DNA of 64,000 nucleotides from Psammoneis japonica (GCA_008632985.1 QPGO01000066.1:62001-126000), one strand, 5' to 3'; counted from the stretch's first letter, positions 2,434 to 64,000 are shown. A program made the numbers and translations. The notes: generated by a model from the sequence alone, not told the origin.

Positions 2434-2914
2434 TTGTTTTGTGTGATGAATGAGTTAGATTGGAACTGAAATGCCACAAAGAGACGGTGTTTTTTGCAAC
2501 AGCAGCGCAACAGCACAATAGGGCGAGTGCACAACAAGTGACACGTTCAAGAGATACGGTTTACAGTATGTGTTGAGTGTTGAGAAAGATTCTCTGGATC
2601 TTTCTTTGATGACGCCTTTCGCCGCGGTATCTTTTTTCATTCACGAATAATGTTCAGTCATGAGTGTCAGGGAGTTGCATGAAAAATCGAAATTTTCATT
2701 TTCCCCTGTTTTTCTCGCATTTTCAGGATCGTGCGAACAGCACGCATGCCGATAGCCGATGCTGCCGACTGCGGTGCCGAGGTGGTAGCCCGTACTCTGT
2801 ATCGATGTAGCCAACAGCGGAGGCTACGCGGTGTCGTTGTCAACGATGTTTTATGGATTGAAACTAAGACGTAAAGACACTGCTGTGCTAAGAAGTAAGA
2901 ATAATGCAATTAAA

Positions 2915-3858
2915 CTAATGTTCTAAACTGCTGGCATTTCTAATGACAGCCGCCACACTTGTCCTTGTTGCTGCTGTGAAAACTGGAACAATGTAAAATG
3001 AAAAGAAGCGCCGCGCACCCTGCTTCGCCATACAAGCAGTGCCGTCAATCAACACAACCTTGGGGCTCTCCATAGAGCGGTATGTTGAGTCCTCAGCTTT
3101 GAGGTCAACATGTGCAATTCTTGAACCATCCTCACCCCCCAAAAGATGAACCTTGTTGATCTTTTTCGACACTTTGATGGGCAAAGGAACAGTGGCTGTT
3201 GACGCCAAGACATCGCTGTCCGACAACCTCATGGAGGACAACTGATCTGAAAGTGCCTCTGGGGCGCTTGTGCACATCCCTGAGCTCTTGGTCTCCTTGG
3301 GATTGTGCCTCCTCCACCAGCACAGCATGGAGTGAGTCCATGTCCATGCTGTGACCCGGCCACTCGGAGGTGCACTGCAAAAACCAACCGCCACCCGTCA
3401 CCGCCAGCTTGAAGCTAGAAAGGTCCTCAGTGCATGCTCCTGAGGGAGCTACAATCACCAGCACCACATGGTCTGTCTTGTTGACAGAATCCTTGTGGGT
3501 GAGCAACATGAGAGTGCATTCTGTTTCATTTGACAAAGTGCAGCATGTGGCGACACTTGCTTCCACCAGTGCCATCATCTGCCGGTGGCGCAGCACTGTC
3601 ATCAGCGCTTCGTTGTTGCAGGTTGAAACCAGTTTCTTTCCTCAGCTTGCACAGCTGAGTGCGAAATTTGGCAAGAGGATGCTTCAAAAACTCTGCACGC
3701 ATGGACTGAACCTCCTTTGGTGACGCTCCAGGATTGATCCTTTTTTGCAACAGGAGATCCCTGAGCAGCATCCAGTCGGGCGAGTTTTTTCAAAAGGCGG
3801 GAGGCGGCTTCAAGTCAGTGCCAAACACTGACTTGCTCCTTGTGTTCATTGTCACCAT
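2915..3858 (-). pseudogene. Harbinger second ORF (putative DNA-binding protein), disrupted
   Basis: Lies between the TIRs opposite the transposase. PKEVQSMRAEFLKHPLAKFRTQLCKLRK resembles diatom Harbinger ORF2 proteins. It is broken by stops and frameshifts. Confidence 0.5.
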
Positions 3859-4035
3859 CGTGTGTGTGTTGGTCACTGTTCTCAATTTTATGACGAGGCA
3901 AGCTGCAAATCCTCTGAATGCGTGTTGCTCACTCGGCACACTACGGCAAGGTTCGCATCGAATCCCGAACTCCGATTTGAATTGTTCACGACCGTCTCAA
4001 CTCTCTCTTTATGTGGGACAGTCAATCCCACACAT

Positions 4036-4120
4036 NNNNNNNNNNNNNNNNNNNNNNNNNNNNNNNNNNNNNNNNNNNNNNNNNNNNNNNNNNNNNNNNN
4101 NNNNNNNNNNNNNNNNNNNN
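4036..4120. other. Assembly gap (85 N)
   Basis: Run of N inside the Harbinger element. Confidence 1.
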
Positions 4121-4874
4121 TCAAGATTCCCTTGCATGCGTTCCAAAAGCGTTCCAAAAGCGTTCCAAAACCGTTCCGAGAACATTCTCGATTGCACTAA
4201 TTCGCGTGGAAATCAAACTTTGGAGCCTCTTAATCTGGCAATGAGACACATGATGCATTGTAATTGGCGCACCATTGTTGGAACTATTTGAGTGTGGCAC
4301 AACAGTGTAAAAGTTTAACAGATTAGATGGATTTGTTGCAAAAAGGCACACCCGTCAAAACAGGTTGCCATTTTCTCTAAGAAAAAGAACGGCTGTTAGA
4401 AGTCTCAATGATTTTGATTTACAGTGGCTGTGAGTTGAACTGTGAAGCACCATTGTAACTGCTGGCATTGTTTGACACTAAACCACATCTGTGACAACCG
4501 CCAATGGCTCCAACACGGAAACACCATTCGACGAAATGGGCATTTCATCATTCCCTTGTTTCCACGTTCCGGGACCGCACCAAAAGCGTTCCGAAACCAC
4601 ACCAAAAGCGTTCCCGAAGGGAATCTCTCTAAAAGGCCTGACATCAGAGCATTGTTTTTAGACATTGGAAATGAATGAGAACCCCACCCGACCATCAATC
4701 CACCTGTGATGCGGCAACAAAAACACTGCTGCACGGAACTGGCGCCGCAGCAATCTTGTTGGCACATGACATAAAACATCATACGCGCAACACACGTCCA
4801 CATTGCTCACCATGCAAATGCGCCTGCCCAAAGCCACAGCAGATTATCTTGCGGGGACAGTCATCCAGAGGCCG

Positions 4875-5763
4875 ATGAGGTCACAACGGATTTGGAACCG
4901 CAGATTTGCCTCGCACTTCTGCTCTCGCGAGACGCAGTGTGTGAGTTGTGGGGCCTTCTTGAAGATGATGGCAACATCCCACGCGGATTTCTGCCCATTC
5001 ATTCATTGCACACATTTTGTTTTCTGAAACTGTGTGACACTGAAACCACAATGGCCAGAATCTGCGGCGGCATGCACGAGGATACGTTGAGAAAATGGGT
5101 GTGGGTTGGGATGGCGCTAATTGCGAATTTGAACTTGGTGCGTGCCATGACTCCAATTTCTCTTTGAATCAATGTGCTGACATTTGATTCACCACAATTT
5201 CATCACAGATTGATTGGGAGAACAGGTTTGTGGATGACAATGGCAGTGCATGCAAGGTGACGGTGGACGGCACTGACTTTCGCATCAACGAACCATCGCC
5301 GTTCGATCCCATCTGGTGTTCGCATGAATTCAACGGCGCAGGGCTTGGGTGCGAAATCGCCATGTGTGTTCAGACAGGTTGGATGGTTTGGGTGAATGGC
5401 CCCCACCCAGCTGGCATTCCTGATTTGAGCATGGCACGAGAGGCGGTCAATTATGAACTTCAAGATGGAGAGTTTTACTCAGCTGATGGGGCACACAGTG
5501 ACGGACACCAGCATTGTGTGGCCCCGACCGGCCTGCGCAATGCCGACCAATGCATGAAGACCGTCGCTCGCGCCCGCCATGAAGCTGTCAACGGTTGGTT
5601 CAAGCGCTTCCAAATGATGACAATGACGCATCGTCATGATCGATTAACGCATCACCTTGCCTTCCAAGCAGTGGCGAACATCACACAGCTTTCCATTGTG
5701 ATGGGACACACACCCTTTGAAGCAGAACACTTGGATGAACAGGAACCCATTTTAAGAAATTAG
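4875..5763 (+). pseudogene. Harbinger DDE transposase (DDE_Tnp_4-like), degenerate; intron 5138-5208
   Basis: Motifs VTVDGTDFRI.EP.PF..WCSHEF.G.GL.CEI, GPHPAG, ADGAH and RARHEAVN.WFK.F. A phase-0 intron (GTGCGT...CAG) joins ..IANLNL to IDWENRF in frame. Positions expected to be Tyr read Cys or His. Confidence 0.85.
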
Positions 5764-6705
5764 GACATTTTGCAACATTTGTTGTGACATTTCTTTGGTC
5801 ACAGCTGCAAGAGAGCCAGTTTGTCTTGTCTGCAAAAAATTTTCGTTGGGCTTCGTAATGCATGAGCAAAACAGCAAAACTTTGTCCAGCAGTTCGGTCT
5901 CAGCGTTAAAAGTTACAATGACTGAGGCTGCTGCTGAATCACCAGACGTGAAGACAACAATGATGTCTCCCACCCAGCACGTCAGCTCGTTGGTGGGTCG
6001 AATGATGAGCGAGACCGACAGCGATTGAGACGAGAGCACTGACGTCAGGGGTGCGAGCAGTGAGCTTCTGATGCGCACGTCACAAGGCGCGACATTTGGC
6101 TGCCCCCTCTCTGACTCGCACTCACGTGGTGCCATCCATTGCATGCTCGAGATGATGGACGACCGACATCAGTTGTGCCCCCCTTTCTCTGCACGACGAC
6201 TTTTCTTCAGTCAAAATGTTTGAAAACACGTGAAAAACAGGGGAAAATGAAAATTTCGATTTTTCATGCAACCCCCAGGATAGGATGAATCTACTCTTGC
6301 GATTTTTAGGTGGACGTGCTTTCATTATCTTCATAAAACACGCACGACGCACGCACGTACGCCACGAATCAAGATACATAACACAATACAGTATGTCCCT
6401 GCGTTCTCTGTCAAATGTACAGAAAACTTCTACCAGAAATAGGCATCCTAAAGTCTTTGGACATTTGTTACAAATAATACGGCGACAAATCTATTTATTT
6501 TCCATGAGCTTCTCAAATGTCTAATTAATTGTTTCAAAATGTCCGAATAAATGTTCTTCTGTCTTCTCACACAATCGGATGGAAAAACCCGCGAACTTGT
6601 TGCTTGCACAATCATTTTTGGGTGGCATGATCCATTTGGTTGACACGCCACTCTCATCACAAATCAAAGGAATCATCCATCCACCAAGTCGTAGCTTGCA
6701 AAATT

Positions 6706-8238: not shown

Positions 8239-9172
8239 CTACACATTGGCAGGGGATGGGGAAACTCGAGCGCGTTTTGCGGAAGGCTCGGGAGTATCAA
8301 GAGACAAGGCACCAGCCAACCGAGTCGTAGTAGCACCCGCAGCAGTATTGACACCTTCCGTGCTGTTCGCTGCGACTTCATCGTTTCCAATGTACTTGCT
8401 TTCGACTTGGGCCAGTTCTTCGTCAAGGCCTTCCGTCACTTGAACAAGCGAGGCCGTAGATGCATCTGGATCCTTGAGGATGCTAGGCAGCACAACTTGA
8501 AAGAAGGAGGGTTTGCTGTGCGGTTCTACCTTGGCTTTCAATTCGGTTAATTATGTTCTTGAGTGCGCGTGCGTCACAAGCTGCATTGCGGCAGCAGCAA
8601 TGAACAGGCAGATTTCCGTTTATGTTCGCCTTCTTGATGCCTTCTGGATGCTCGTCTGCAATCAGATTGAAAACGTCGATGCCGCGTAGACCGGCATAGT
8701 GGACAGGCAGAGTTTCCTCTTTGTTCATTGTTCTTACAGCTTGGGGACACCTGCTCACCAGTTCACGAATTGAGTCAATGCCGCAGCCTTTGATTGGAGC
8801 TTCGTGGAGAGGTGAGTTTCCCCGTTTGTTTCCATGCTTGAGACCATCTGAGAACTTCTTGGCAAGCATCTTGACAATGCTTGCGCCGACGCTCCTCACT
8901 TCGTGAATCGCCAGGTTCCCCTTGTTGTTCTGGGTCTTTGCAGCTTCAGGATTCTTTTCGACAATCAATTCAAGGAAGCTGAGATGAACAGCCGTGATCC
9001 CAGGTCGATTCGGTCTGAGTGCATCATGAAGGAGAAGATTTCCTTTGCCGCAGGTCATTCTTGCTAAGTTCTGGCCAAACGGTGAATTCAGGATTGAAGT
9101 CGCCTCAAGCCAATCCCCGTTCTTAATGTGCCGACGTAGCGTCAGGGCATGTTGGAGGGTTTCGGAGCTCAT
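8239..9172 (-). pseudogene. Ankyrin-repeat protein, frameshifted near 8545 and partly TpA-eroded
   Basis: Repeated G.LxLH/GNSPLH/ETLPVH/GNLPVH ankyrin motifs. The C-terminus continues in another frame (8239-8541). SRCPQA and DEHPEG sit where YP is typical. Confidence 0.7.
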
Positions 9173-9419
9173 CGCACTTTGCCGAATGCTGTTTTGGGGT
9201 TTGGCTTTGGTTTCTGCTTCTCTCTCACCATGTGGATCGCAGCTTGTAGCCAGAGAGTCTAAGTCTGTTTTGCGATTTGCGACGACAGAATGGAGAAACA
9301 ACAGTGTGGAAATAAATGAGCGGCAGCGTGCGGATCGGGTGCGGCACTCTCTCTGCGCGGCAGCCCTGCTGGTGCGTAGAAACGCACTGCACGGTGACAC
9401 AAGAGGATGAGAATTCAAA

Positions 9420-10930
9420 ATGGCGCGTTGCGGTCGGTCCGTTCCCCGTTTCTATGTTCATCGAATGCACCCTGCCTCCAGCATCCTCCAGAAACTTCAG
9501 CTCAAAATGACTTCCTGTTTTCCATCAGCTGGAGCTTTTGCACATTTTGGAATCTGTGTTGTCAGTCTTTGGATGGTCTTGAGGGTGACACTGCCTGCTT
9601 GCTTTTTTCTGCAAAGTTTGTTGCACATCATTTTGCCACCCGCTTGTGATGCAGTTGACTGGCAAGCCAGCACTGCAAATTTGAGTGCCTCTGCCTCCAG
9701 GCTCCACCACATTCTGAACCTGTGCCTCTGCTTCTCTAGTTGCTCCACTCTGAAAATCCATTGCTTGCCAAGCAAAACACGTGCTCTCCAGCAAAGCTCA
9801 GCACCAAATTTGTGCACATTGTTTCTGCGCGACTTTAGATTGAACTGGTGTTGGCTTCCACAGCCCCCCTCCCATGTGTTGGAAGTGAGCCATCCACTCA
9901 ACAACTTTGCACAGCTTTGTTCCTGGAGTTGCACTCTCTGATGTTTGCAAAAACAGCTCCACGCATGCGCAGGTTTTCCAAAATGTTGAGTTCAAAGTGG
10001 CACGTTGATGCTGTGGAGCCTTGCCAAAAGCACTCACCATCACACCCGAAAGTGCACTGCATCTGGCATGGGACCCGGGCTACTTGGGGAAACACCTGGA
10101 GAAATCAGACCCACAAAATGATGAATGCATTGCTGGAAAATGTGTTTTCTAGCATCAACCATCATGAGGTCAATTCTCACAGCTCAAGTGAAGATTCCTG
10201 TGTTCTTGGGAGTGGAGAATTCAAGTTTGTTTTGAGTCATTGGCTGGCACAACTGCCTGGTGCATGCACGTGAGGAGCTCACATGCAACATTGCCCAGTG
10301 GTGTGGCGTGAGGTGCAGATGGCGTGGTGGGGTGAAATGGCATTGCACAGGAGGTGGGGAGCAAACGGATGGGTTCTGGGAGTGAGAGCAGCAAGTTGAG
10401 CATGCATTTTGGAGGAGTGGCAGAGAAGTTGGTCAGCAAGGGATTTGGTGATGGTTGGGCTGAGGCTCTGGAGGCCCCATTGAGCAGCAGTGGTTGTGTG
10501 GTGAGTGAGCCCAAATCTGGCAGAGGTGATGGCAGCCCACAAAGCTGCAGCAGCAGGAAGGAGGCCAGATGGAGAGAGTTGGGCATTGGCACAGGCAGCA
10601 CATGGTTGGCACCAAAGAGCAGGCAGTGGGCACCAAGATGGCCAATCATGAATGGAACAAGGCAAATGCCAGCTTCATTGAGGGAAGCAATTGTGGGGGT
10701 GCTGTCTTGGGTTTCATGAGTTCTGTGGAACTTCTGTTTTACACTCGCATGGTGTGCCTTGGTTGCAGGGTCTTGAGCAGGGGCAGGCAAGCCAGGAGGT
10801 GGAAGCAGAGGTGGTTTGGGAACCAAAATGTTGATGGGAGGGCAGCTGTGAGAAAGGGGGGCAGCGGTGGAGGAGGCAGGGGTGAGTTTGACACCGACGT
10901 CAGAGCCGGCCGCTTGAGTGGTGAATGCGG
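9420..10930. mobile_element. Heavily degenerate repeat relic; 10220-10830 (-) possibly the C-terminal part of a non-LTR retrotransposon
   Basis: Near absence of both TpA and CpG and no coherent ORF. LNEAGICLVPFMIGHLG and QWGLQSLS..ITKSLA resemble C-termini of restriction-like-endonuclease non-LTR elements (weak). Confidence 0.35.
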
Positions 10931-11067
10931 CTCACTTTCTCTGTTCTACTCCTAGCTAGCTAGCTGGCTTCCTCGAATAGCGCAGGATTACTACTTGGTC
11001 GGCCATCGTGGCAGTGAACTATATGAATTAGCGCATGTAACATGTATCAAACTATAACCTAAAAAAA

Positions 11068-13868
11068 TCATCCAAAGAAATAATTGGATGCAACCTGACG
11101 TTCGGCTTCGGCAAAAAGCATGTGAGGAGGACACGAGACGGATTTGCTGCGCCTCCTCCTCCGAGGGCGAGCATTCGTTGTCGCTTCGGATGAGGTAAAG
11201 GTCGAAACGGAATCATCGCGCTCTTCATCCACAGCGATTCTTGTTTCCGTGGCAGACACGGGAACTTCGGCAAAGAGCATGTGAGGTGGACACGACACTG
11301 TCTTTTTGCGACGTCGCCGTTGATCGGGGCCGGGTGTGACGGGAAACGTGTTTGCTGCCGGTGTCGTCATGGGAACTTCAGCAAAGAGCATGTGCGGAGG
11401 ACACGACACTGTCTTTTTTCGTTGCTTTCGACGAGTACGTCGCTGTTCACCGGCTTGCTCAATATCCGGAAGGGGTGTCACTTGATCGTGTACCTCCTCC
11501 ATCTCGTCCTCGTGTTCCTCTTCCATATCTTCTTCCTCGTCGTGTGGTTCGTTGTCTGTTTTCACGAGCTCTTCACTGTCAGCCTCCTTGTGCTCCGCAT
11601 CGCAAATAGCAGCTAGATACTCCTTCACCATGTCATCATCACTGTCTATCACTACCAGCTCCAGCTCTGAAAATATCTTTGGTAATAAGAAAAGCCGAAC
11701 CGGAATGCAAAGAGCAATAATGAGCGGAAAGGCAATGGCAATGGTCTTGATTGATTTCACCACAAAGAGTAAACCAAACAGGAACAATTGAATACCCGTA
11801 AACAAATGCATCCGTTTCGGTTTCATGTGAACCGTATACGGTTCGAGCGGATACTTGCATGGCTGCATAAAGTACATGAGGACGCGTCCCCAAAACTGGT
11901 TGGTACCCAGCGACACCAACCCCATAAAGAGAAAGACACCGTAGAGGACCGGCATGGGAATGACCTTGAGCACATCGAGTGCAAAAATGGACGCCAAACA
12001 AAGGAGATGGATAAAGAGATTCGTCAATCTTGTTTCCTGTACCGATACAATTTTCCCGTCGGGCGTCTTTTCGGCCATGGCATGAATATGGTTGAGCGAT
12101 CGGACGGTAAGCAGCCACCAGCCAGGGCAAACCCAAGAGCGAGTTGATGGCAATCTAAAGAAAAGAAGACAATTATCGTTGGTAGATGAGTGAGAGTTTG
12201 GACAACTAAATCATTCATAAAACCGCAGTTTAGACCTTCCCACTCGACTCACCATGACACCAATCACCAACGTGTCGTAATTGAACGCCTCTCCATGCTT
12301 GAGTTTATGGGTCGGATGATTGATTAAGTGCCACGTAATGCCATCGTCCAAAAACACAAGGATAAAGGCAAGAAAGGCGGGTCCTGCCGCGATAATGGGT
12401 ACGGCATTTTGGCCATTTAAATCAAACAAATCCACCAACCATGGTCGTTGCCGTTCCGGTTCGCTCTGATTGGGACAATCGTCGGGCCAGTTGGTATCAC
12501 ATCTGTCGTCGCAACAAGAGTATGTAGGAGCAAACGAGTCGGGGACGTTTAGAGTTTCCGTCTTGACGTCACTAAACGCCACGTTGCCAATTAGACACAT
12601 GACAACAATGGACGACACAACGGCAAAATCCGTGACAAAGTTGCGTGTCAATTGATTGGGCAAAAAGGGAGAAAACTTGACCTTGCGCAACAAAAAGGCC
12701 AAATACACGGTTCCGAGGCAAAGCATGAGCGACAGCAGGGCGGATGCCATGTAGGAATAGTCGGGATCATCTTCATGCTCGTCGTGGGACTTGTGGTCCG
12801 GATCAAAGTAGTAAAAGACACCCACGGGTGCAAAGGGGTTGTAGAGAGCGTTAATGATGAAAATGAAGGAGATTAACAGGCTAAAAATCTGAAAAAACAC
12901 AAAACGACAATAGGTTACAAACAGGCTGAGAATAACGAAATTGAACAATACAAAAACACAGAAGCACACTTGTCTATTGCATACCTCATCGGTAAAGCGG
13001 GAGGCGTAGGCAATGATTCGGTTCAATCCACCAAAGGCTGCAATCACCATGTAAATAAAGACCCAAATCCCGATCCAAGCATTGAATGTAAGAAAGGGAA
13101 CATTCATGCTGTCGGCCATGCGAACGAGAATTTCCGTAAAGGCCAAGACTGGACCCGTACCGCCATTGATCATCTGGATATGAGAAAAGAACAAAAGTTT
13201 TATGTGAAATCATCGTGTTGTTTCAAAGTTAAGAGCAGAAAAATCAACGTTTTCTATGACGTACCATTGGTTGTCCTCCAATCAGAGCATACACAATTCC
13301 ACACCACGAGGTGGCTGTAATCATTTCAACCGCTGTTTTCAAAAAGAATATAAAATCAGTGAGAATCTTTTCTCAATCTTCATAATAAATATATTGAGTA
13401 CACACACGCACTACACTACGATTCTATATTATACGCACCTCCAATCCAATTGTTGGTTGCCTTTTCATAGACGGCACCAAAGGTAATGGCGGGGGCAATG
13501 CACGCAAAGAATAGAAAAAACGACACGGCAAACACCTTGAGATTGAGATTGATCATTTCCTCCTTCCAATGAGTACCCACGGTGCGCTTGTAGTCCGCGA
13601 CAATGCCTCTGCCACATCCCGGGCCTTTGTTGACGAGTTTTTCTTGTGGATCTTGATTATCGTCATGAGACTCTTCTTCCACATAATGATCCACGGCTGC
13701 TGTGGTTGTATCCAACGTGGCGACTGTGTGACGGCCACTGATATCCTCATCCGCAACTGCTTTTCCATCGTCTGTACGATTCTTTCCATCTTTGTCATTC
13801 ATCATTGGAAAGGTCTCAGACCTGTGATATTCAACAATGGGAGCGCTATTCCACCTTCGATACGACAT
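11068..13868 (-). CDS. SLC4: SLC4/Band-3 family bicarbonate/borate transporter; exons ~13868-13439, 13332-13265, 13173-12985, 12888-12253, 12154-11068, with a +1 frameshift at ~12109
   Basis: Motifs FLFFACIAPAITFG, YALIGGQPM, GGTGPVLAF, RFTDEIF, HKLKHGEAFNYD, GLPWLVAA-TVRSLNHIHAM, VQETRLTNL and IPMPVLYGVFLFMG. Four canonical GT-AG introns. Confidence 0.93.
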
Positions 13869-19245: not shown

Positions 19246-19300
19246 AGAGTTCACTGCAAAAGGTGTGTCAACCTGTCTAACAGCATCTGTTGGCACCACT

Positions 19301-28400: not shown

Positions 28401-28411
28401 AATAAGGCAAT

Positions 28412-52095: not shown

Positions 52096-52142
52096 AAAAA
52101 AAGAACAAACAACGAGCGACATTGGTAGTTAAAATAGAAACA

Positions 52143-52230
52143 TCATGGTAGACTTGCGCTCTTGATACGCCAACACGCGGTTTGAATTGTCATGGTAGAC
52201 TTGCGCTCTTGATACGCCAACTCGCGGTTT
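52143..52230. repeat. Tandem duplication, 47-bp period
   Basis: TCATGGTAGACTTGCGCTCTTGATACGCCAAC.CGCGGTTT at 52143 and 52190. Confidence 0.9.
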
Positions 52231-52385
52231 GCGTTGTATTTGGAGTGGACAATATAGCGATGGGAAAGGCATGGCGCACAAAAAGTCGGATACTGGTATT
52301 ATACTATTGTGGCTTTATCAAAGTAGGAACATGGCTCTATTATAGCTCTAGACACTGTCGCTTTTCGTTGCGCGCAATACTTCTT

Positions 52386-53012
52386 CTAATGATCTTCAAG
52401 GCAAATGGGAAGGTCACGTTCGCCGGCTTCGTTCAGAATGTCCCGAATGCCCATGTTGGACCTCCTGACGCTCTTTTTGTATTGACCATTTTCAATAAGC
52501 GAATTGGCCATTTCAAGCTTTTGTGTTGGCGTTCCACCAAGGAATTCTTCATCTTCAAAGTATTCAGCATCGGTAAGAATGTCAATCATTTCTTCCAAGA
52601 GCCCCGCGGCACACATGCTTGCCAATTCTCCGGCGTCATTGCCAAAAAATTCGGCTCTTTCATTTTCGATATTGGAGGCCCGTTTCGCCAAAACATTGAA
52701 CCACTTTGTGGCTTGCAAGAGGCGATTGACGGATACAACCGCGTTGCCGCCGTCTTCCATAACCTTCTTGGCAATACGAAGTTTTGTAGCGGCGCTGTCG
52801 GAATATCGGTCAAGCTTGGCATCGCCAAAGGGCTCCTCTCCAAAACTGTCCAGAAGCGCGCTGAGGCAATCAATGTAGTTGCAAGTGGGAAGGTCCATTT
52901 CTTCGGGAAAGGGAGCCGTGTGACCAGGGAGTTTCCTCTCCTCTTCTGTAGCGGAAGCGTTTCCCACGAAGAGAGCAACAGTAGCAAAGGCGGCAGCACT
53001 GGCGAGCTTCAT
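52386..53012 (-). CDS. Secreted hypothetical protein (208 aa)
   Basis: Clear signal peptide MKLASAAAFATVALFVGNASA in an intact ORF with normal composition. Confidence 0.75.
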   Translation of the reverse strand: MKLASAAAFATVALFVGNASATEEERKLPGHTAPFPEEMDLPTCNYIDCLSALLDSFGEEPFGDAKLDRYSDSAATKLRIAKKVMEDGGNAVVSVNRLLQATKWFNVLAKRASNIENERAEFFGNDAGELASMCAAGLLEEMIDILTDAEYFEDEEFLGGTPTQKLEMANSLIENGQYKKSVRRSNMGIRDILNEAGERDLPICLEDH

Positions 53013-53295
53013 TTTGACAAGTGCTTTTCAAAGAGACTGATTTTTTTAAAAGACTGAGGTATCAGAGGAGACGGTAGCTGTTGTTCTTGAGCCTTGCAAG
53101 ATTGTGAGAAAAATAGCAAAGGTTCTTGCGGTGTGAAAACAAGAGAGCAAATTGAAAAGCGAACTTGTGACAAAACACGTTGGTACCGTTTCGAAATATA
53201 TCATTAAGTAAATAAGTCTTGATTCTGTCTTGTGAATAATCACATTTTATGAATGATTAATCTAAATACTTAAAAAATATATTTAGAATCCAAGA

Positions 53296-54019
53296 TTAAG
53301 GGTGGTCGGTTGCTACTTTTTTTAGCTCGAATTCGGCCGAATAGCTCGTGTTTTGCATGATTTTTCCTGAATTTCACCGTGCTTCACCGTGGTGAAAACA
53401 ACAAGCCATAAGTCTGTGACGGAGGTGGTCCGTCTACCAACTCTCATTTATTTTATGTTTGTTATGTAACAAAGATTGTATACACATGAAAAGTTGGTAG
53501 ACGGCAAACTACGTTTTTGAGAAATATCGATGATTGTCATCATCGTCGTGCTTCGGTCGCGGTGCTGATGGTTCTTCTCGTTCAATAGCAATCTTTCGCG
53601 CTGTAGAGTCATTTACGTAGAAATGTGTAGAACAGTACCAAGATAATTATTGAAAAGTCTGTCTGTCTGTCCTTAGTGAATTTTAACTTTGCGAAAAATG
53701 GACTTGACTGTTTTCTGATCAGGCGTATTTTTCTTCAATACATTTGCAAAAATACGCCTGACCCGATAACAGTCAAGTCTATTATTTTTGCACAAATTGT
53801 GTGAACATATCAGTTTCAGTACAAAAACGTGTAGATTCTACAGGCGTCCATAATTATTTTATGCTTTTTACGTCACGGGTCATTTTCGAAAGATTCCTAT
53901 TGTCGTGCGCGATCGGGTGTGACTATGAATAATTCTTGTATTCAAAAATAAACACTATAAAAAACCTTATTCAAATGCAACGGTAATTTTAGGATAAACG
54001 CGGGGATGACCCCCCTTAA
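53296..54019. mobile_element. Possible non-autonomous TTAA-flanked element (Kolobok-like) with internal hairpins
   Basis: TTAA|GGGTGGTC at the left and GACCCCCC|TTAA at the right (7/8 inverted match only). Internal inverted repeats at 53430-53504 and 53701-53779. Confidence 0.3.
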
Positions 54020-54734
54020 AACGCGAACAAGTGACATTTTCTGGTTTGAACGGAACAATAATTCTTCTGGTCGAGGGCCTGCTGCCATGCAACTGTCTGA
54101 TCCCTCCCAATGGCCTGCTACAATGACTGAAACACGCAGGGACAATGACAAAGCCTAAATCGACGATTGCTGCTGACTTTAGAGTCATGTTTGTCGACGC
54201 ACTGGCGAAGAGGCCGTGTGTCTATTGAATACGTGTTGGATCCTTTCATTTCGGTATAGCCCATTCAACCATCTAAGCAGATACTACTATACAAAATAGA
54301 AAACTGGGAGTGTACGCAACGTTGTCTTTTGATACAATAACTACGGCATGATATATAGATAGCTACACCATGCGCCTTTAGTCCGGCACATTCGCTTTGC
54401 GATTATACAGTGGATTCATTAGAAATCGCGTTATGCTGGAGCTGATGCACGGCAGCTTTACCCAGAAAGGAACAGATCTCCCATTGCGATCGCCTCCGGT
54501 ATCTCTGACCTCATCGAACAAAACACCGGTTTTAAGACGAGAGGTGACACCGCCTGCCAGCACGTGCCCTTTCGCGGCAGATGACGCGGATTCTCCCGTA
54601 TAGTAGACTGAAGTTCACCAACGCTGTCCTGACCGACTTGTACCGCGTCTCTCTGTCAAGTCCTTGTTTCACCATTCATCTCGTTTCCGCTGCTTGCCAA
54701 TTGCAATCACTTCATCGTCATTTGTGTTTCATTG

Positions 54735-56180
54735 TTACATGGGGCATCTACAATGGATTTCTTCCCCGTCTGTAGCCCGTAGGGTTCCGTTGTTGCCATT
54801 GAACAGTTCGCCAGGATGCTCGAGTTGTAGAGTGTACTTGTTGCCAGGCTTTCCACCTTCCCACGATGATGATGATGATGACTCGTCGTTGTTATCCGTG
54901 GGATACTCGAGCAATATCTTGCTGTCGGAGTGTCGACAATGCACTCGGACTAGAAATTCTCCTTGTTCCTGTTGATCATTCCAAACGGTTGTCAAGCCGT
55001 CTACCGAAACAATGTCAAATTCATCTGTATTGTAAAAGCACAAGTCTTCCTTTCTTGCCGTGGATTGAATGAGCTTTTCCATATATGTCGGATTGCTTCT
55101 GTTTTCTTCGACGGCTTGTACAAAGGATCGAAAGCCACCGGCAGCAAAGTGGTCTGCCCATTCGCGCTTCACAGAAGCGTCTTGAATGTATTTCACAACC
55201 ATGCGTAGCAAGTACTCACGCTCCACCAATCCAATACCAGGACTCCTCCACAACAAAAATGTCAGTTGCCCACAGAGAAAGGTTCCCGTGTATTGTGTAT
55301 CCGGATGGTACTCGGCGACAGTATTGTCGTTGGGGCTGGCCGAAAAAAAGAGTACGGCACGATTGTCATGTGCCGCGGGTCCGGCGTGTAGCACGCTGCC
55401 TGGTAAGGAAAGCAACGATCCTGTTGGTAATAACGAATCGTCGTCGTCCGTACCGATTTCGGTCAGTTTGGATTCGGGAAGGAGCGTGTTTCCGTAATCT
55501 CGTAGCAAATTCATGACCCGTGTGCTTTGATGTATTGCGCTTGTCAAGTTTTTTGGAAACTTTTCCACTTGATCACTCCACTCATTCCATAACTCTTCCA
55601 AGTCTTGTACGGAGACAATGTCATCCTTGCATACATACACAAACGTGCCAGGACTACTGTCGGTAACGATGAGTCCAAATTGATAATTGGGTGCCAACAA
55701 ATCAATGTGCGCATCTTGTTTGTCACAAGCACCAAACGTTAAAATCAAACTGAAATTACCAAATTTGAATTGTTCTGACGACAAAATGATTCGTGTATCC
55801 CTCGACGCTTGTCGAATGGCATATTGTACAATTTCGTCCTTGGCATCGTTTGGAAATTGATTGTGTTGTAAAATTTCATCGAGACAGGTCGAGCACTTGT
55901 CGGCGGCATTCGCTACAAACACTTCCAAACGACCCGTTTGAATAGGACGAACCGATTCTTCTTGTGTAATATTGCTGCCATGATTGTTTTCCTTAATAAT
56001 GTGTTTGTCATAACATTTTGTAGAAGAACGTGTAAAGAGAACTTTGCCGAGTTTTTTCAAGAGTTGCAAAGCTCGTTTGTCGTTCTCCTCGGGAGATGAT
56101 TCGGGAGGTGGAATGAGCATCAAAGGTGACATCAATGACAATTGCTGCTCTTGATGCTTTCTCTTTTGTCGAGTCGTCAT
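54735..56180 (-). CDS. Hypothetical protein with 2OG-Fe(II) dioxygenase-type motifs
   Basis: Long intact ORF with QDAHID...GSLLSLPGSVLHAGPA...RAVLFF (HxD...H...R). The start codon is uncertain. Confidence 0.65.
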   Translation of the reverse strand: MTTRQKRKHQEQQLSLMSPLMLIPPPESSPEENDKRALQLLKKLGKVLFTRSSTKCYDKHIIKENNHGSNITQEESVRPIQTGRLEVFVANAADKCSTCLDEILQHNQFPNDAKDEIVQYAIRQASRDTRIILSSEQFKFGNFSLILTFGACDKQDAHIDLLAPNYQFGLIVTDSSPGTFVYVCKDDIVSVQDLEELWNEWSDQVEKFPKNLTSAIHQSTRVMNLLRDYGNTLLPESKLTEIGTDDDDSLLPTGSLLSLPGSVLHAGPAAHDNRAVLFFSASPNDNTVAEYHPDTQYTGTFLCGQLTFLLWRSPGIGLVEREYLLRMVVKYIQDASVKREWADHFAAGGFRSFVQAVEENRSNPTYMEKLIQSTARKEDLCFYNTDEFDIVSVDGLTTVWNDQQEQGEFLVRVHCRHSDSKILLEYPTDNNDESSSSSSWEGGKPGNKYTLQLEHPGELFNGNNGTLRATDGEEIHCRCPM

Positions 56181-56459
56181 GATGTTTTGTATAATGTGAT
56201 GAGTGGTACCGTGAAAGGAGGCAGAGGTGTGCAACAGCAGCAGCGCCGCAACAATAAAACACATCAACAACCGAGATGCACTTCGCATTAACCATATACA
56301 GCAATGTATATTATATTGAAAAATCGAAAAAATTAGCTTCGCTCGAAATCCGTGAAAAGTTGTGAAAGACACACAGCAAGTTCACACACGGTGCACGTGC
56401 AAACAAAAGGAGAGACCCAATTCTTGTGTGATGCCGATTGAAATGCCTGACGAACAAAA

Positions 56460-57600
56460 CGACAGCATTGTGGAAAACTGTCGATTGAAGTCCCCCAAGG
56501 AAATGGCACAGAGGCAAACATCAACACGGCTCTGTCAAAAATCTGTTTGCTCAAATCTGCCCCAAAGCGTGCTCCAATTTGGCTGTGAGTTTCTGCAAGC
56601 CAAGTCATTGTGACAAAGCAGAAGCATCAGCTGCTCAGTCACACCCTGCCCCAGACCCCAGCTTACAGCATGGGGTGTGGCAAACACAGTGCAGAGTTGC
56701 ACGGGAATGCTCTCCCCTGGTGGTGTGCCGTGCCATGTTGCTGAAATCTCTTGCTGGATGGTGAGCAGTGAAAAAGGAGGCCTTCTCTGCCACCACAAAG
56801 CCCAACAAAGAGACAGCCCATGTGTGTGGCATTGCATTCCTGGGAGGTCTGATTGGTTGGTTGTTGCTTTGTGCTTTGTGTGTGATGTCACAGAAATGAG
56901 CGAATCAACACACCACTTAATTCTGCGGCATGAGGAGGCTGTGGTGCAAAACAGTGCAACACAGCAGCAGAAACAGCAGCAACAGTGACAGAAACTGACA
57001 TTTGCATCTGCACTCTGCATCTGTGGCTCTTCTGCTCTGGCACTGGGGCTGGTGCTGCTGCCATGATGTGCCATGTTCTGGGTGGGCACACCAAAGCATC
57101 TCGCAGCCAAAAGATGGTGGAGCCACCAAAGTGAAGTGCCTGCTGTGTGCCCAAATGGATGGGAACAAAGTGGAGCTCATGCTCTTTGGGAGCTGCTCTT
57201 TCATCCTAAAATTCTTCACCCATGTCAAAATGAGGAGCAAAACCTCTCCCCAGCTGGGAAAAGTTTGCTTGGCAAGTTCCACAAGAGGGTGGTGCTCTCA
57301 GCAATGGATTTTTCTGAGCCCCCCACCCCCACCCCAGGGCATCTTCCATGTGTGCATGCTGTCATTGCCGCTGGCAGGTTCCCAAAATTAGTTTCATCTT
57401 CCTGCCTTGGCAGCTGGTGGTGTGTCACAAAGATCCACAGGTGCAGCAGCCACTGGGGGAGGCATTCTCCTGGTCCTGTGCCATGATGTGGAGCCCTTCT
57501 TGGTGCCAGTGAATTTTGCCAAACCCACCTTTTGATGCCACAGTGGGCAGGAGGGCCGTCGCAGTGCCTGTGGTGTCACAGCATTGAGAAAGCAGTCAGC
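56460..57600. repeat. Dispersed repeat family, copy A
   Basis: CATTGTGGAAAACTGTC.ATTG.AGTC.CCCAAGGAAATGGCACA and downstream blocks align colinearly with 60548-61385. Depleted in TpA and CpG. Confidence 0.8.
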
Positions 57601-57849
57601 AACACCAGTGCCAGCGAGTGTCTTTAGAACCATCAACTCACCACCGGGGGGCACGCTTCCTGCAGCCTTGTAATCTGTTGTTGTGACGTGCCTCTAGTGC
57701 CATCTGGCATAACTTCTTCAACTGTCACCTTTTTGGTCCCATCAGCTAACACCATCGTCATCGTTAAACGAAAAGAAAGAAGCCTTCCATGTCTCTGCAT
57801 GCGACAAAGAACATGTGGAAGGGGGTGATGTTGGGGAACTTGATGGATA

Positions 57850-59596: not shown

Positions 59597-60544
59597 CGTG
59601 CGACGGCGTACAGTATGCCGATTGCAATGATAGGGCTACAGTAGAGGCCATAGCACATGGCGAAAGCCCTCTGCCAATTAGTAGAACGCCTCGTATGTAG
59701 AATTTCTACTGAGACCTACACGATCGCTTCTTTTTCGATCATCGCTTTGCTTGTGCACACGAAATCTCAACTGATGTTTGCAATTTCGACAAGATTCCAG
59801 GTGCAAATCGATGCTTCTTTGCATTTTCTAAGGAGCTAACAACACTCAAAACGATCACAAAGAAGCAACAAAACAAAAATAGTTTACTTGACGATTTGGG
59901 GTGTTCGCACCCCAAGTAAAACTGTTTTTTCTTTGTCTCAAAAAAATTCCTCTGACGAGACTCTTCCTTGTGCACCCGATTGCTCAGTGGGAACACGTCG
60001 GATGAATGTGCACAGATGTGACATGGAGAGCTGAGAGGAAGAACTAAGGAGCCATCATGGCACATTTCGACTTGCAGGGTTTTTTTTGGAATGAATCATG
60101 CACACGCTTTGTGCTTTGGTGGGGTGGTGTTCACTGTCATGAAATGAAAACTGTGCCGGGCTGTTGACTGAGGCAAGACATGCAAAATTGATGAAGCACA
60201 TCCTCAAACACCTGGGATTCTTCTGTGCATGATCCCTCACACATCATAAAATGTGGCGCGGCTGTTTCTCCCACACAATTTTCACAACCAAGCAGCTGTC
60301 GACAATGGTCTTCACGAGTCAGAACCAGCCGCAACAGAGAAAAGGGTGCAGAGACGCGTTCCAGACGTGGGTGGGAATCCGTGTGACCTTGGGCCCGCAG
60401 AATTCCACATGCAAGCTCTGCAGCAAAATTGCAAGGCAATGGAAATGTCAATGATTGCCAACAGAAAATGAGGCAATTTTGCGAATGCACAAACCAGGCC
60501 ATGATTGACGAACATCATTTTTTACTTGGCCAGTTGCGTTCTTC

Positions 60545-61385
60545 AGACATTGTGGAAAACTGTCAATTGCAGTCTCCCAAGGAAATGGCACACAGGCAAA
60601 CAACAACAGCTCTGTCAAAAATCTGTTCACTCATCATCTCTGCCCACTGGAGCTGAGTCTCTGCAAGCCAAGTCATTGTGACAAAGCAGAAGCATCATCA
60701 ACTGCCTGCTGCTGCCTGCTGCAATCTCTTGCTGACTGGTGAACAGTGAAGAAGGAGGCCTTTTCCCTGCCACCATGAAGCCCAGCAACAAAAAGATGGC
60801 CCATGTGTCGTGTGCTGCATTGCACCCCTGCTGAGAGACAGGTCTGATTGGTCAATTGTTGCTGAGTGAACCAACACATGCCACTCAATTCTGCAGCATG
60901 AGGAGGCTGTGCGGCACAAAAGCACAACACAGCAGCAGCAGCAGCAGCAACAACAACAACAACAACAACAGAGCAGCTGGCAGGTGCGCCTGCACTGTGC
61001 GTGCACTCTGTGCTGTGGCTCTCCTGCTGGCACTGGGGCTGGCACCATCATGTGCCATCATGTTTTGCACGGGCACATCAAAGGATCTCACAGCCAAAAG
61101 ATGATGGAGCCACCAAAGTGAAGGGCCTCCCACATGCCCAAATGGATGGAAAAGTGGAGCTCATGCTTTGGGAGTTGTTCTTTCATGCCAAAATTCTTGA
61201 CCCACCAGCAGGTTCCCACTCCCACAAAATTGGTTTCATCTTCTTCCTTGGTTGCTGGCAGTGTGTTGCAAAGATTCACAGCAGGTGCGGCAGTCACCGG
61301 GGAGGCCTTTTCCTCCTGGTCCTGTGCCATGATGTGGAGCCCGTGCCTCAGTGCCAGCAAATTTGACCAAACCCACCTTGTGATG
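60545..61385. repeat. Dispersed repeat family, copy B (third partial copy at ~62060-62260)
   Basis: Colinear with 56460-57540. Contains a (CAG/CAA)n tract at ~60926-60970. Confidence 0.8.
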
Positions 61386-61774
61386 AATCAAGATGGCCAC
61401 TCAGGCACAACCCACCATGCCACCAATGAGTGAGTGTGTGAGGGAGACTCATGAGCTACAAAGGCCATGCCAATGGCTGGCCCAACACAGGAGGTTGCCA
61501 AACTCAGCAACACAAAGAGCAGAGGTCGGCCTGGGCCAGCACGGACCATGCCCAGTGGGAAATCTGGAGGAATTTGTTGTTGCACAAGCCCATGGCTCCA
61601 AAGCCAAGCCAATTGAATTCTGCCCATGAGCTCTGCAGCTCATGCTCTGGACAATGGGAGTGTTTGTCGTTGACACACAAACAAATGACTGAGTTTGTGG
61701 AGCATTTGCACCGCTTGATGCTTGCAATTTTTGAAAATCCCCACCTGCCCCCTTCACAGTTCTCAAGACAATCG

Positions 61775-61890
61775 AGAATTGATCTGAAGAAAAGGGGCAT
61801 TGGGAGATTGCTGGTTGTTGTCGGCCATTTCTGCAGTGGCAGAGTTTGACGGCACCATCAAACAGCTCTGTCGCAAGTCGCGAAAGCTAA
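61775..61890 (+). pseudogene. Calpain catalytic-domain fragment
   Basis: RIDLKKRG-(I)GDCWLLSAISAVAEFDGTIKQL matches the calpain QG.LGDCWLLSA active-site-Cys motif. The surrounding sequence is decayed. Confidence 0.55.
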
Positions 61891-62689
61891 CGAAAATGTG
61901 TTTTTCTGACATGAGAGAAGAAATCGAACATGCACACGATTGTGCAACAGCGGCATTCAGCATGTCAGGTTGTTGTGGTTTAGGAGTGCCTTCCTGCATG
62001 TTGGCAAAAACAGCAAAAAGGTTTTCTTGCCATCCTCGAGGGTGCAAGGTGCCATGCGACAGCATGACATGCTTCCTGTGGCACAGTTGCACCAGAATGT
62101 TCCCTGGCACCTTGCCATGCCGCTGCGATCTCTTGCTGACAAGTGAACAGCAAAGAAGGAGACCTTCCGCCACCACAAAGCCCAATGAAGGTGGCCCATC
62201 TGCTGGATTGCATTCCCAGACGATTTGATTGGTTGCTTGATGCTTCATGCGAAGTCAAAGGAACGACATGGATGACATGCATTCCAGGCCAAACGAGAAG
62301 AGTTGCGACTGCTCTCTTCATGTTGGGTGCGTGCAATTCCTTTGTTCAGGCACCCTCATCACTGGGTTTGCAGTCCACACAACTTCTGCAAAACGGCTCC
62401 ACAAGATCGTGATGCAGGCTTTGCACTTGAAAAAAGGTCATTCACACATTGTGGTGTGATTGCAAACAAAGCGGGACGGGTCAACATGTCTCACGTTGTT
62501 CGCTCTCACGTGTCTTTCTTTGTCGCTGGATTGGTCGCCCTGTCCTCAGCTCATCAGTCAGCAGAGAACAGCTCCACTTGAACATGTGCTCCCGACGACA
62601 AAGACCGCCAAAGATTTTTGCGGGGATCTTCTCCTTGCAGAGGAGACCAATGATCGTTGTGCCCTAAATCATCTGTGTCCGAACCCAAG

Positions 62690-63600
62690 CGCGGGGAGTT
62701 GCGCGCAGATGCCACAGCTGGCATTCTTTGGTTTCGACCAGCAAACCAATTGGCCGCAGCCTTCACCGCAACCAGACAAGGATCTGGGAGTGATGTGCGT
62801 TTGGCAATTCTGGCCTTGACGATCCTCATGCCCCATGTGGCAAGGGAAGTGGGATTCGCTTTATCCACAACAGTTGGGTTCACGCGAGGAAGGTCAAATT
62901 CGGTGTGACGGTCCACCATTGTGTGGTTGATTCCATCAACTGCAGCAGCGACCAAAGGATCAGGAGTGTTGTTGGCCGACACTGATTCCATGATGCTGTC
63001 ATTGAATGTCGATGTCGCGATGGCGCGAGCAAAAGTGGACAGCAGTGCCGTCACCATCACGACGTCTTGATGTGTGCATTCTGAGTCAGGTCCACGATGA
63101 TTCTGAAACAATTCTTGGTGTGTGGCCTCCGCGTCTGCGCCACCACGAGAACAGATCACAACACTGCATGAGCAATCCTCGTCTGGGTCAATTTCATCCC
63201 AATTAAGAACGTCGGTCAGGGACATGATCGGAACAATCAGAAGAAAAGGGACATTGTCCATGGCTTCTTTCTGAAATTTGAGTCTTGGCATGTTGCATTT
63301 GTTGTGTTTTAGGCCAGACTGGGAGACACGCTCGATTCTTCCATTGCTCAGCCTGTGCTCCACTCCTTTCACAAGTTTGAGATGAATCTCTGGACTCACA
63401 TTTTTCAGTCCCAGTGCAGCTTTGGAGACAAACCCACACGATTTGGATCCTCCTTTTGCATCGGAGATCACATGTGCTTTTTGAAAAATTCTGTGGCCAA
63501 GCAGATCTGTTGCCACATCACCGGTGCTGTTTGATTTTCCAGAAGAATTCTCACTGCGCCCTGGGGCTTTGGAACTTGCAAGGTCCAAACGAAGCTTCTC
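62690..63600 (-). pseudogene. Degenerate member of a repetitive diatom protein family (HNH-like inferred)
   Basis: KAHVI, SGLKHNKCN.PRL..Q...DNVPFLLIVPIMSL..V.NW and PDPCLVAVKAAANW. TpA-depleted and Tyr-free. Confidence 0.4.
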
Positions 63601-64000
63601 CTCTGAAAACACGGGCTGACACATCTTCGGCACAGACCGGCGGCGGATGGGTCCCAGGGCATCCACCCTGCTGTTGCTGCTGCACAAAGTGATCTGTGCT
63701 TTCTCGATGTTCCAGAAACTGTCGTAAAAGGAGAAATGGGCACCTTTCTGTCGCTGATCCTCCTCCACAGACGCGCTCCAGGTCCAGGTGGGACCTCGTG
63801 CTGCTGAACTGTGACATCGACAGTTTTTTGAATCGCGTCGTATGTCGCGCACGTAGATTTCTACGTGATTTTGGCGAAATTTTGCATCATTTTACAGTGC
63901 AAATGTCAGGCGATCCATTCAGCAACTTTTAATGTTTTTTTCTTCTACGCCATTCTCGAGTGTCTTAAGAATGGCGCAGGGCAGGCGTGTTGTCCAAAAC

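Follow-up and report, generated by a model that had tools for sequence, protein, structure and literature searches.

Classical hypermutation defences, among them fungal repeat-induced point mutation (RIP), APOBEC editing, and the decay of 5-methylcytosine (5mC), push DNA towards A:T. In RIP, as described in Neurospora, transitions in a dinucleotide context wreck the frames of mobile or duplicated DNA and spare neighbouring genes; the changes are C:G to T:A, mostly CpA to TpA, which raises both TpA and AT content, and they need duplication and a sexual cycle. APOBEC3 and ADAR of animals also inactivate mobile or viral sequence by clustered, deaminase-type transitions as part of innate defence, where APOBEC converts C to U in TC or CC contexts on one-strand cDNA and ADAR acts on double-stranded RNA. 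The first report of a targeted push the other way, to G:C and at TpA, came in 2026 with a preprint on a single chlorarachniophyte, Bigelowiella natans (Mettrop et al., bioRxiv 10.64898/2026.01.13.699255). Here we describe a stretch of 64,000 nucleotides deposited as Psammoneis japonica (GCA_008632985.1, QPGO01000066.1:62001-126000; hereafter the window, with positions counted from its first letter), in which six blocks have been almost stripped of TpA. Judged by its signature, the process appears to be of the same kind as the TpA hypermutation of B. natans.

According to the preprint, DNA of giant viruses and virophages that has integrated into the B. natans genome is hypermutated at TpA. In mutation-accumulation lines, two inserts, one of a nucleocytoplasmic large DNA virus (NCLDV) and one of a virophage, took 231 of 302 nuclear mutations; 230 of these 231 were A>G or T>C, all stated to lie at TpA and to be restricted to the two inserts, and the rate in the hypermutable regions was about 1,000-fold over background in only some of the lines (bioRxiv 10.64898/2026.01.13.699255). 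The NCLDV region is single copy by depth and by BLAST. In the genome as a whole, 124 clusters are poor in TpA and rich in CpA plus TpG, with enrichment for reverse transcriptase (RT) and DDE domains among the TpA-poor genes and for unannotated genes (bioRxiv 10.64898/2026.01.13.699255). Genome defence by ADAT2-like adenine deamination was proposed, and the main text of the preprint makes no mention of wider sequence context, CpG, or diatoms (bioRxiv 10.64898/2026.01.13.699255). A preliminary description of the window, made from its letters alone, had put forward an undescribed, repeat-targeted system of genome defence. Given this precedent, in which the same TpA-only A:T>G:C process is reported, the system can no longer be called undescribed; our literature search returned no report of TpA hypermutation for diatoms or for any other lineage besides B. 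natans.

Observed/expected (o/e) dinucleotide ratios were computed per 1-kb interval across the 64-kb window, and block limits were taken from a two-state Viterbi segmentation on TpA positions. TpA o/e per kilobase was 0.00 to 0.27 inside the six blocks named by the preliminary description and 0.36 to 0.71 outside them; in the blocks, TG and CA o/e reached up to 1.3 to 2.0, and CpG was mostly lowered. The segmentation returned depleted segments at 3082-6280, 8736-10946, 14144-28402, 29009-45280, 56335-57624, and 59918-63999, with each boundary within about 250 bp of the limit proposed earlier. Together these segments sum to 41,318 bp, about two thirds of the 64 kb, and they contain 240 TpA, where about 1,760 would be expected from the density of the other segments (5.8 per kb in the six segments versus 42.6 per kb in the gene islands between them). 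In depleted and other segments, respectively, o/e was 0.10 and 0.57 for TA, 0.61 and 1.04 for CG, 1.60 and 1.21 for TG, and 1.58 and 1.24 for CA, with GC fractions of 0.517 and 0.455. Both products of a TpA transition are present in the blocks, TG at 98.8 and CA at 98.7 per kb. Over the 64 one-kilobase intervals, TA o/e correlated negatively with TG/CA o/e (r = -0.85) and positively with CG o/e (r = +0.71). AA and AT were not depleted (AA o/e 1.25 in blocks versus 1.19 outside), and TA alone was lost. At the extreme, positions 26001-28000 hold zero TpA at a CpG o/e of 0.07 to 0.20, in complex sequence without simple repeats. An SLC4-type transporter gene with normal TpA sits a few hundred base pairs from two of the blocks, and since genes this close were untouched, the process is directed to particular domains and does not hit the genome indiscriminately. 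Overall, the depletion of TpA is real and confined to blocks, the limits of which are those given above.

The coding potential of the blocks is altered accordingly. Tyrosine accounts for 0.17% of their six-frame translation (139/82,432) and for 2.5% outside (1,141/45,348). Stop-free stretches of at least 110 codons overlap the blocks in 133 of 171 cases, often in several frames together, because TAA and TAG stops were lost with TpA and open frames are thereby inflated. Gene predictors would call false genes in such blocks.

The direction of change was read chiefly from a tyrosine-recombinase retrotransposon at 37010..43192 (minus strand) in block 4. This element carries split direct repeats (37010-37176/37365-37531, 97%; 37142-37240/43094-43192, 96%) and has RT and recombinase on one strand, features of the DIRS order; from these it is classed as a DIRS-order element with an Ngaro/PAT-like layout, an assignment that implies no phylogenetic placement within the order. 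The recombinase frame (37504..38700, minus strand, 399 aa) has 587 homologues, the best at E = 2e-176 and 69% identity, and the RT frame (39140..40549, minus strand, 470 aa) has 4,016. Recombinase homologues share a conserved R..RYLH motif, the tyrosine of which the preliminary description takes to be the catalytic one. No Pfam family was matched by the window recombinase frame or by family members P0001, P0002, and P0004, and four homologues of the RT frame that were tested gave weak RVT_1 matches, with E from 6e-6 to 2e-3, none of which passed the Pfam cut-off. The recombinase family (about 380 aa) comprises 587 protein matches and 367 metagenome stretches, with 46 invariant columns among 40 members.

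Both frames were aligned with homologues (120 for the recombinase and 79 for RT), and columns with a consensus of at least 60% were called conserved. The window frames differ at 79 of 424 conserved columns. Conserved tyrosines were hit out of proportion: seven of nine such columns read Cys (six) or His (one), all as TGY or CAY codons, compared with 72 changed among 415 other conserved columns (Fisher p = 1.6e-4). In the recombinase, four of five conserved Tyr columns were changed, including the RYLH tyrosine to His (MLRYLH>MLRHLH) and PGEYT to PGECT; in RT, three of four read Cys, including YVDD>CVDD, where Tyr is found in 62% of relatives. These three readings had been made without an alignment and are confirmed by it, and all eight motif strings quoted in the preliminary description were found at the elements to which it had assigned them. 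Tyr content is 2.0 to 2.1% in the homologues, whereas the frames of the window have 0.3% and 0.6%. A second Tyr-poor recombinase copy, protein P0003 (0.5% Tyr, 67% identical to the window frame), has H, C, H, Y, C at the five Tyr columns, the opposite Cys/His choices from the C, Y, C, C, H of the window, and in these two copies the TAY codons changed independently. As had been argued from the outset, CpG deamination cannot turn Tyr into Cys or His, and fungal RIP runs the other way.

At the DNA level, the best-scoring 80 of 367 metagenomic loci served as relatives of the retroelement. Their TA o/e ranged from 0.38 to 0.87 (median 0.63), and the depletion signature was seen in none of the 80, with no 1-kb interval below a TA o/e of 0.23; having been chosen by score, these loci give no measure of how widespread the process is in nature. 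Codon alignment drew on 39 of these loci (L001-L040 minus the partial L022); after two with an in-frame stop had been removed, 37 remained as relatives. TpA numbers 5 in the recombinase coding sequence of the window, where the 37 have a median of 30 (range 11-48), and CpG numbers 75, where their median is 94. At seven sites TA is present in at least 40% of the 37; there the relatives retain TA at 78%, and the window reads TG at three, CA at two, TA at one, and TT at one. At 60 comparable CG sites, the window retains 28 (47%) versus 60% in relatives. By comparison with relatives, the direction of change is shown as TA>TG/CA on both strands, in line with the original proposal; the Tyr columns, the relatives, and the gains of TGY and RCA reported below all point that way.

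Descent from a TpA-poor ancestor, through foreign or horizontally acquired composition or through selection, would together with ordinary CpG decay call for no special process, and it is true that CpG decay is clearly present and that TpA is mildly low everywhere, at 0.57 in genes. Such descent does not account for a retroelement whose relatives have ordinary TpA (median o/e 0.63), for the loss of conserved tyrosines, for two copies with different Cys/His outcomes, or for a TAY loss that equals the TGY gain, and 2 kb of complex sequence without TpA is not natural. Because the relatives have ordinary TpA, intact copies are not as TpA-poor as the window copy; equally TpA-poor intact copies, which the preliminary description had named as grounds against its proposal, are thus not seen for the retroelement. 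Inherited composition is thus largely refuted for the retroelement, and for the blocks as a whole we regard it as highly improbable.

The letters themselves were compared with a public sequencing run, X1, which contains 74% of sampled words from 20001-30000. Contigs were built from exact 31-mers of X1, where the single-copy k-mer depth is about 58. Contigs spanning 24675-25741, 25730-28488, and 28659-31728 had 0, 1, and 3 letters that differed from the window, and a contig over the SLC4 island (12001-14525) had no differing letters and one gap. A technical origin, in which modified TpA is misread as G or C or in which assembly or polishing changed the letters, draws on the library type of X1 not being on record and on X1 perhaps being the source of the assembly. 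It is opposed by exact 31-mer contigs at about 58 depth that agree with the window over kilobases, by genes in the same contigs with normal TpA, by a high-copy family whose copies differ at such sites, and by P0003, a protein of the public collection in which changes of this kind sit at different positions. As the X1 contigs repeat the TpA-poor letters, assembly or polishing error is excluded, and an artefact of any sort is very unlikely.

To define the sequence context, TA sites were classed by the number of strands that present 5'-TAY-3': two in RTAY, one in one-strand sites, and none in YTAR. The ratio of TpA density in blocks to that in gene islands was 0.024 for RTAY, 0.12 for one-strand TAY, and 0.46 for YTAR (chi-square p = 1e-34), and the ratio of the retroelement to its 80 relatives was 0, 0.16, and 0.49, respectively (p = 1e-7). 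The 6.3 kb of the retroelement contain 39 TpA and not one RTAY site, and the TpA surviving in its terminal repeats are CTAG, TTAA, and CTAA. This pattern, with RTAY lost and about half of YTAR left, was found in six of six blocks. Products rose where substrates fell: per 1,000 trinucleotides on both strands, the retroelement differed from the 80 relatives by -17.1 for TAY and +17.9 for TGY, and by -11.2 for TAR, +4.7 for TGR, and -4.7 for CGN. On the sense strand of the element, the gains were +19.4 for TGY and +16.3 for RCA, compared with +1.95 for TGR and +7.4 for YCA. On these survivor densities and product gains, the preferred site is shown as 5'-TAY-3' on either strand, which for T is equally writable as 5'-RTA-3'. 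A DNA-transposon remnant is affected as well as the retroelement. Both strands are hit in proportion to their TAY sites, which argues for a process at the level of DNA and against editing of retroelement RNA.

ADAR-like A-to-I editing of retroelement transcripts, fixed through reverse transcription, would place the same changes in the RNA. ADARs favour a 3' G, whereas the 3' neighbour preferred here is a pyrimidine. The two strands of the retroelement are hit about equally, the DNA-transposon remnant and sequence outside transposable elements (TEs) are hit too, and in the inserted copy TA- and CG-derived sites distinguish one terminal repeat from the other, which argues that the change followed insertion. 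Even with the ADAR preference for A>G after a 5' U or T (as cited in the available text of bioRxiv 10.64898/2026.01.13.699255) and with a retrotransposon as one affected element, we consider RNA editing extremely unlikely.

Decay of CpG was observed in the same blocks, and its extent had been underrated in the preliminary description. CpG o/e in blocks was 0.07 to 0.9, and CpG-type amino-acid changes exceeded TpA-type changes in conserved columns: among the 79 changed columns, 20 fit CG>TG/CA alone, 12 fit TA>TG/CA alone, and 47 fit neither. Between the 72-nt inverted arms at 43313/45296, four of five differences are CG<->TG. Diatom transposons are 5mC-methylated, and loss of DNMT5a removes methylation in Phaeodactylum, according to the available part of PMC9998398; CpG decay in the blocks is expected for this reason. 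With 5mC decay the blocks share lowered CpG, R>C/H/Q changes, CG<->TG differences between arms, and TG/CA products, but such decay can neither remove TpA nor make TGY or CAY from TAY. Loss of CpG and loss of TpA were weakly related across 41 depleted intervals (Spearman 0.29, p = 0.07). We read the two as separate processes on the same domains; CpG decay, putatively driven by 5mC, accompanies the loss of TpA but does not explain it.

Depth and copy number were compared over 12-32 kb (20 kb of the window). Summed X1 k-mer depth at 14.0-24.7 kb was 1,000 to 4,600 versus about 58 for single copy, identifying a high-copy family. Variants between its copies comprised 51 A>G, 46 T>C, 75 C>T, and 56 G>A, with 53 transversion places; among the 40 listed of 281 variant places, 9 were TA<->TG/CA and 14 were CG<->TG/CA. 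By contrast, 24.7-32 kb, including the TpA-free 26-28 kb, showed single-copy depth at a likeness of at least 90% (64 to 104 over 24675-28402 and 57 to 84 over 29-32 kb).

These depths bear on the trigger, for which the state of chromatin or methylation, the foreignness of the DNA, and its repetition are candidates. Repetition would act through homology-sensing, RIP-like marking, with the single-copy parts being old repeats whose partners were lost. The high copy number at 14.0-24.7 kb, the paralogy of blocks 5 and 6, and the tandem arrays and retroelement of block 4 fit such a trigger, and outcomes are largely fixed by context, so that independently mutated copies would still be alike. The most depleted part, however, lies within 24.7-32 kb at single-copy depth; conversion at TpA is estimated to split copies by a few per cent, which would leave partners findable at 90%, and the B. 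natans target, as far as the preprint text describes it, is a single-copy viral insert (bioRxiv 10.64898/2026.01.13.699255). Targeting of repeats is therefore not demonstrated, and we judge repetition an unlikely trigger.

Together, these data make it very probable that the six blocks are silenced mobile DNA, with other non-genic or degraded nuclear DNA, hit by DNA-level TpA>TpG/CpA hypermutation. Such a process would make context-specific A:T>G:C changes at the palindromic TA step. RTAY sites could be hit from both strands and would almost all disappear, sites with TAY on one strand would mostly be gone, and about half of YTAR sites (CTAG, TTAA, and CTAA/TTAG) would be left. TG and CA would be unreactive and form the end state, into which CpG>TpG/CpA decay would also feed, and the destruction of Tyr codons would destroy the transposon enzymes. 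We infer that the process is enzyme-driven and acts as a genome defence.

The natural site of TadA is U-A-C (U33-A34-C35 of the anticodon loop). TadA, ADAT2-ADAT3, and the base editors derived from them share with the blocks the deamination of A after U or T, and U-A-C resembles T-A-pyrimidine; adenine deamination by a TadA/ADAT-like deaminase is a possible chemistry, slightly less likely than not. The natural substrate of these enzymes differs, being a tRNA loop, and action on chromatin DNA in algae is unproven; activity of ADAT2 on DNA is as cited in the available text of bioRxiv 10.64898/2026.01.13.699255. A broader form of the proposal, in which a dedicated TadA/ADAT-derived DNA adenine deaminase specific for 5'-TAY-3' acts on silenced chromatin, erases mobile or foreign DNA at any copy number, and is shared by distant lineages of stramenopiles, alveolates, and rhizarians (SAR), whether ancient or horizontally spread, is somewhat doubtful in its full extent. 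Error-prone synthesis of the Pol eta type (WA>WG), which the preliminary description had listed, is not supported, as AA is not depleted.

Thymine-directed chemistry would start from the other base of the step: T in 5'-RTA-3' is oxidised or modified by an enzyme of TET/JBP type to 5-hydroxymethyluracil (5hmU) or 5-formyluracil (5fU), mispairs with G, and becomes C. Every event at the palindromic TA reads as A>G or as T>C depending on the strand, with the motif written equally well as TAY or RTA, and the sequence itself offers nothing against this chemistry; furthermore, 5hmU is a natural DNA base of dinoflagellates, another SAR lineage (PMC6313786, available part). Less favourably, the titles listed in the literature for diatoms together with 5hmU all concern dinoflagellates, a TpA preference of dinoflagellate 5hmU is not confirmed in the available part of PMC6313786, and the sole published proposal for the signature is adenine deamination by ADAT2, untested, in bioRxiv 10.64898/2026.01.13.699255. 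Thymine chemistry is accordingly considered unlikely.

Several points weigh against this account of TpA-directed hypermutation and its TAY rule. Results cover one 64-kb window, and X1 is possibly the assembly's own data and so would not be an independent sample. All calls of direction are comparative, none coming from de novo mutation; the relatives used for the ancestral state have 47 to 71% protein identity and concern one element, their selection by score favours intact copies, and for the other blocks neighbouring genes stand in for the ancestor. The basis of the TAY rule is the density of survivors and the gain of products against proxy ancestors, not polarised events. At six one-strand TAY sites that are polymorphic for TA and TG/CA within the window, three follow the rule and three do not, a split that is expected if the fast sites are already saturated, and two Leu>Pro changes among the 12 TpA-type changes need a hit on the TAR strand. 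In alignments of paralogues within the window, adjacent double differences of the CA<->TG type numbered 307, compared with 62 for the next type and 6 to 25 for other double transitions; most mixed TG/CA sites of a 13-unit tandem array, though, retain CG, not TA, elsewhere, and the doublet count therefore reflects both processes. Since TA is palindromic, sequence cannot separate adenine- from thymine-directed chemistry. Lastly, assignment of the host depends on one protein. In that protein, an ABC1 kinase, the best match has 68% identity and no near-identical protein was found; among its best 120 relatives, all 11 that carry an organism name are diatoms, at 44 to 52% identity. A locus tag among these relatives, CCRYP, is presumably that of Cyclotella. 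Proteins and transcriptomes of B. natans are public and would be expected to match a window from that species. We conclude from this protein that the window probably belongs to a diatom or a close relative and not to B. natans.

Compared with fungal RIP, the process described here runs in the opposite direction, as TpA is destroyed (o/e 0.10) and the GC fraction is raised from 0.455 to 0.517; as to the duplication that RIP needs, one part is at high copy and another, which may have lost older partners, is single copy at a likeness of at least 90%. Unlike APOBEC3 and ADAR, it changes A:T to G:C at TAY on either strand of the DNA, and a DNA transposon is among its targets. With B. natans it shares A:T>G:C change at TpA, giving TpG and CpA, the confinement to regions that lie beside normal genome, and long-term clusters poor in TpA and rich in TG/CA. 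The hosts differ, a rhizarian there and a diatom-like stramenopile here, as do the targets, viral inserts there and a tyrosine-recombinase retroelement, a Harbinger remnant, and a high-copy repeat here. The latter is a difference of target and not of process, as RT and DDE genes are among the TpA-poor genes of B. natans. Depletion is stronger in the window (o/e 0.10, with kilobases at 0) than in the B. natans NCLDV insert, for which the available text gives a Rho of 0.45; the TAY rule and CpG decay are found here and are absent from the main text of the preprint. De novo rates were measured in B. natans, and sequence was compared here. New here are a second, distant host, transposon targets, near-saturation, coexisting CpG decay, and the 5'-TAY-3' rule.

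Mobile DNA could be recognised in several of the blocks. A Pfam scan was run on 125 block open reading frames (ORFs) taken from the 133 stop-free stretches of at least 110 codons that overlap blocks; two spanning an N gap and six in a Pro/Thr-rich array were left out, and three of these six were scanned separately. Nine of the 125 had any match at E<=0.01, no viral family was matched among the 125, and Rfam gave no match in the window. Matches in blocks comprised DDE_Tnp_4, ankyrin, PhyH-like, Pro/Thr-rich repeats, Peptidase_M8, and three that were marginal. With nine of 125 block ORFs matched, profile searches miss transposons in TpA-free DNA.

Block 1 (3082..6280) holds 32 TpA (TA o/e 0.17, CG o/e 0.75) and includes a scaffold gap of 85 N at 4036-4120. 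Its ORF at 5188-5760 (plus strand) is a putative Harbinger/PIF-like DNA transposon remnant, with a weak DDE_Tnp_4 match (E = 0.0074) below the Pfam cut-off; the strings WCSH at 5314 and ADGAH at 5482 lie in this remnant. Block 2 (8736..10946; 13 TpA, TA o/e 0.10, CG o/e 0.43) ends about 120 bp from the SLC4 frame, and an ankyrin-repeat ORF at 8486-9451 (minus strand; Ank_2 E = 1.7e-6) spans its left edge. The high-copy repeat family, to which no class was assigned, makes up block 3a (14144..24674; TA o/e 0.04 to 0.16 per kb). Within it lies a stop-free frame of 602 aa at 17437-19242 with the strings HPNC and WHD, which had been labelled Plavaka. This label is unconfirmed, as a search at E<=0.001 of proteins 331-1,054 aa long gave no homologue for the frame and Pfam gave no family, and it may be a false frame held open by the loss of stop codons. 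A PhyH-like (2OG-Fe(II) dioxygenase) stretch at 20799-21584 (plus strand; E = 9.9e-6) also lies inside the high-copy repeat. Block 3b (24675..28402) is the most extreme part and is at single-copy depth.

Between blocks 3 and 4, positions 28403-29008 form a 606-bp island of normal TpA (TA o/e 0.78, GC 0.41), in which 189 nt are duplicated in tandem (28406-28573 / 28595-28764, 87%); the island may be host DNA left over between two insertions, or it may have been inserted recently. Block 4a (29009..36740, plus strand) consists of tandem arrays rich in Pro, Ser, and Thr followed by a leishmanolysin-like fragment. The arrays occupy about 5.6 kb at 29991-35615 with periods of 60, 252, 240, and 150 nt at 75 to 84% matches (PT-repeat E = 2e-59), and the fragment matches Peptidase_M8 at 36098-36736 (E = 2.4e-5); a PDB search with the fragment returned nothing at E<=1. 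Arrays and fragment together may once have been a gene for a surface protein of the host, or else cargo that a mobile element carried. Block 4 ends on the right, beyond the retroelement, in an element at 43313..45296 that is bounded by 72-nt inverted repeats (93%) and has a 237-nt tandem repeat inside it. Block 5 (56335..57624; 4 TpA, TA o/e 0.05, CG o/e 0.23) is paralogous to part of block 6, with self-alignments to 60548-61385 at 72 to 82% identity. Block 6 (59918..63999; 18 TpA, TA o/e 0.07, CG o/e 0.52) reaches the end of the window and contains a marginal calpain match (Peptidase_C2) at 61788-62225 (plus strand; E = 3.3e-4), below the Pfam cut-off.

The genes that lie between the blocks were mostly as first described. 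Pfam supported a UDPGT gene, the SLC4-type bicarbonate transporter, a Nucleotid_trans glycosyltransferase (46932-47882, plus strand), the ABC1 kinase (48331-50409, minus strand), and a TauD dioxygenase (50599-52095, plus strand), and the proposed GT34 gene, an ORF at 58367-59635, matched no Pfam family. The last three of the supported genes lie in an unmutated island at 45281..56334 (TA o/e 0.56, CG o/e 1.07). The SLC4 island (10947..14143, minus strand; HCO3_cotransp E = 4e-45 and 4e-44) is also unmutated, with a TA o/e of 0.57. Contigs of a second run, X2, cover the SLC4 gene and almost none of the blocks. They bridge four gaps in the gene, 12154>12253, 12888>12985, 13173>13265, and 13332>13439 (91 to 106 nt), which look like short spliced introns; X2, which is on record as 'DNA?', thus behaves as RNA would, and the SLC4 frame is open through some of the gaps.

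The diatom-like footprint of the window means that TpA hypermutation is not confined to one species or to viral inserts. Most of a 64-kb region can be shaped by it, and the enzymes of transposons can be inactivated as their Tyr codons are lost. Annotation of such genomes is biased, both by false long frames and by transposons that are hidden from profile searches. The contrast between TAY and YTAR provides a concrete enzymatic fingerprint that narrows the search for the enzyme, and transformable diatom models exist in which enzyme and targeting are approachable by knock-outs. If a TadA/ADAT-derived deaminase does prove to be responsible, it would be an 'adenine base editor' that eukaryotes possess by nature, and no earlier genome defence is known to act through A:T>G:C change.

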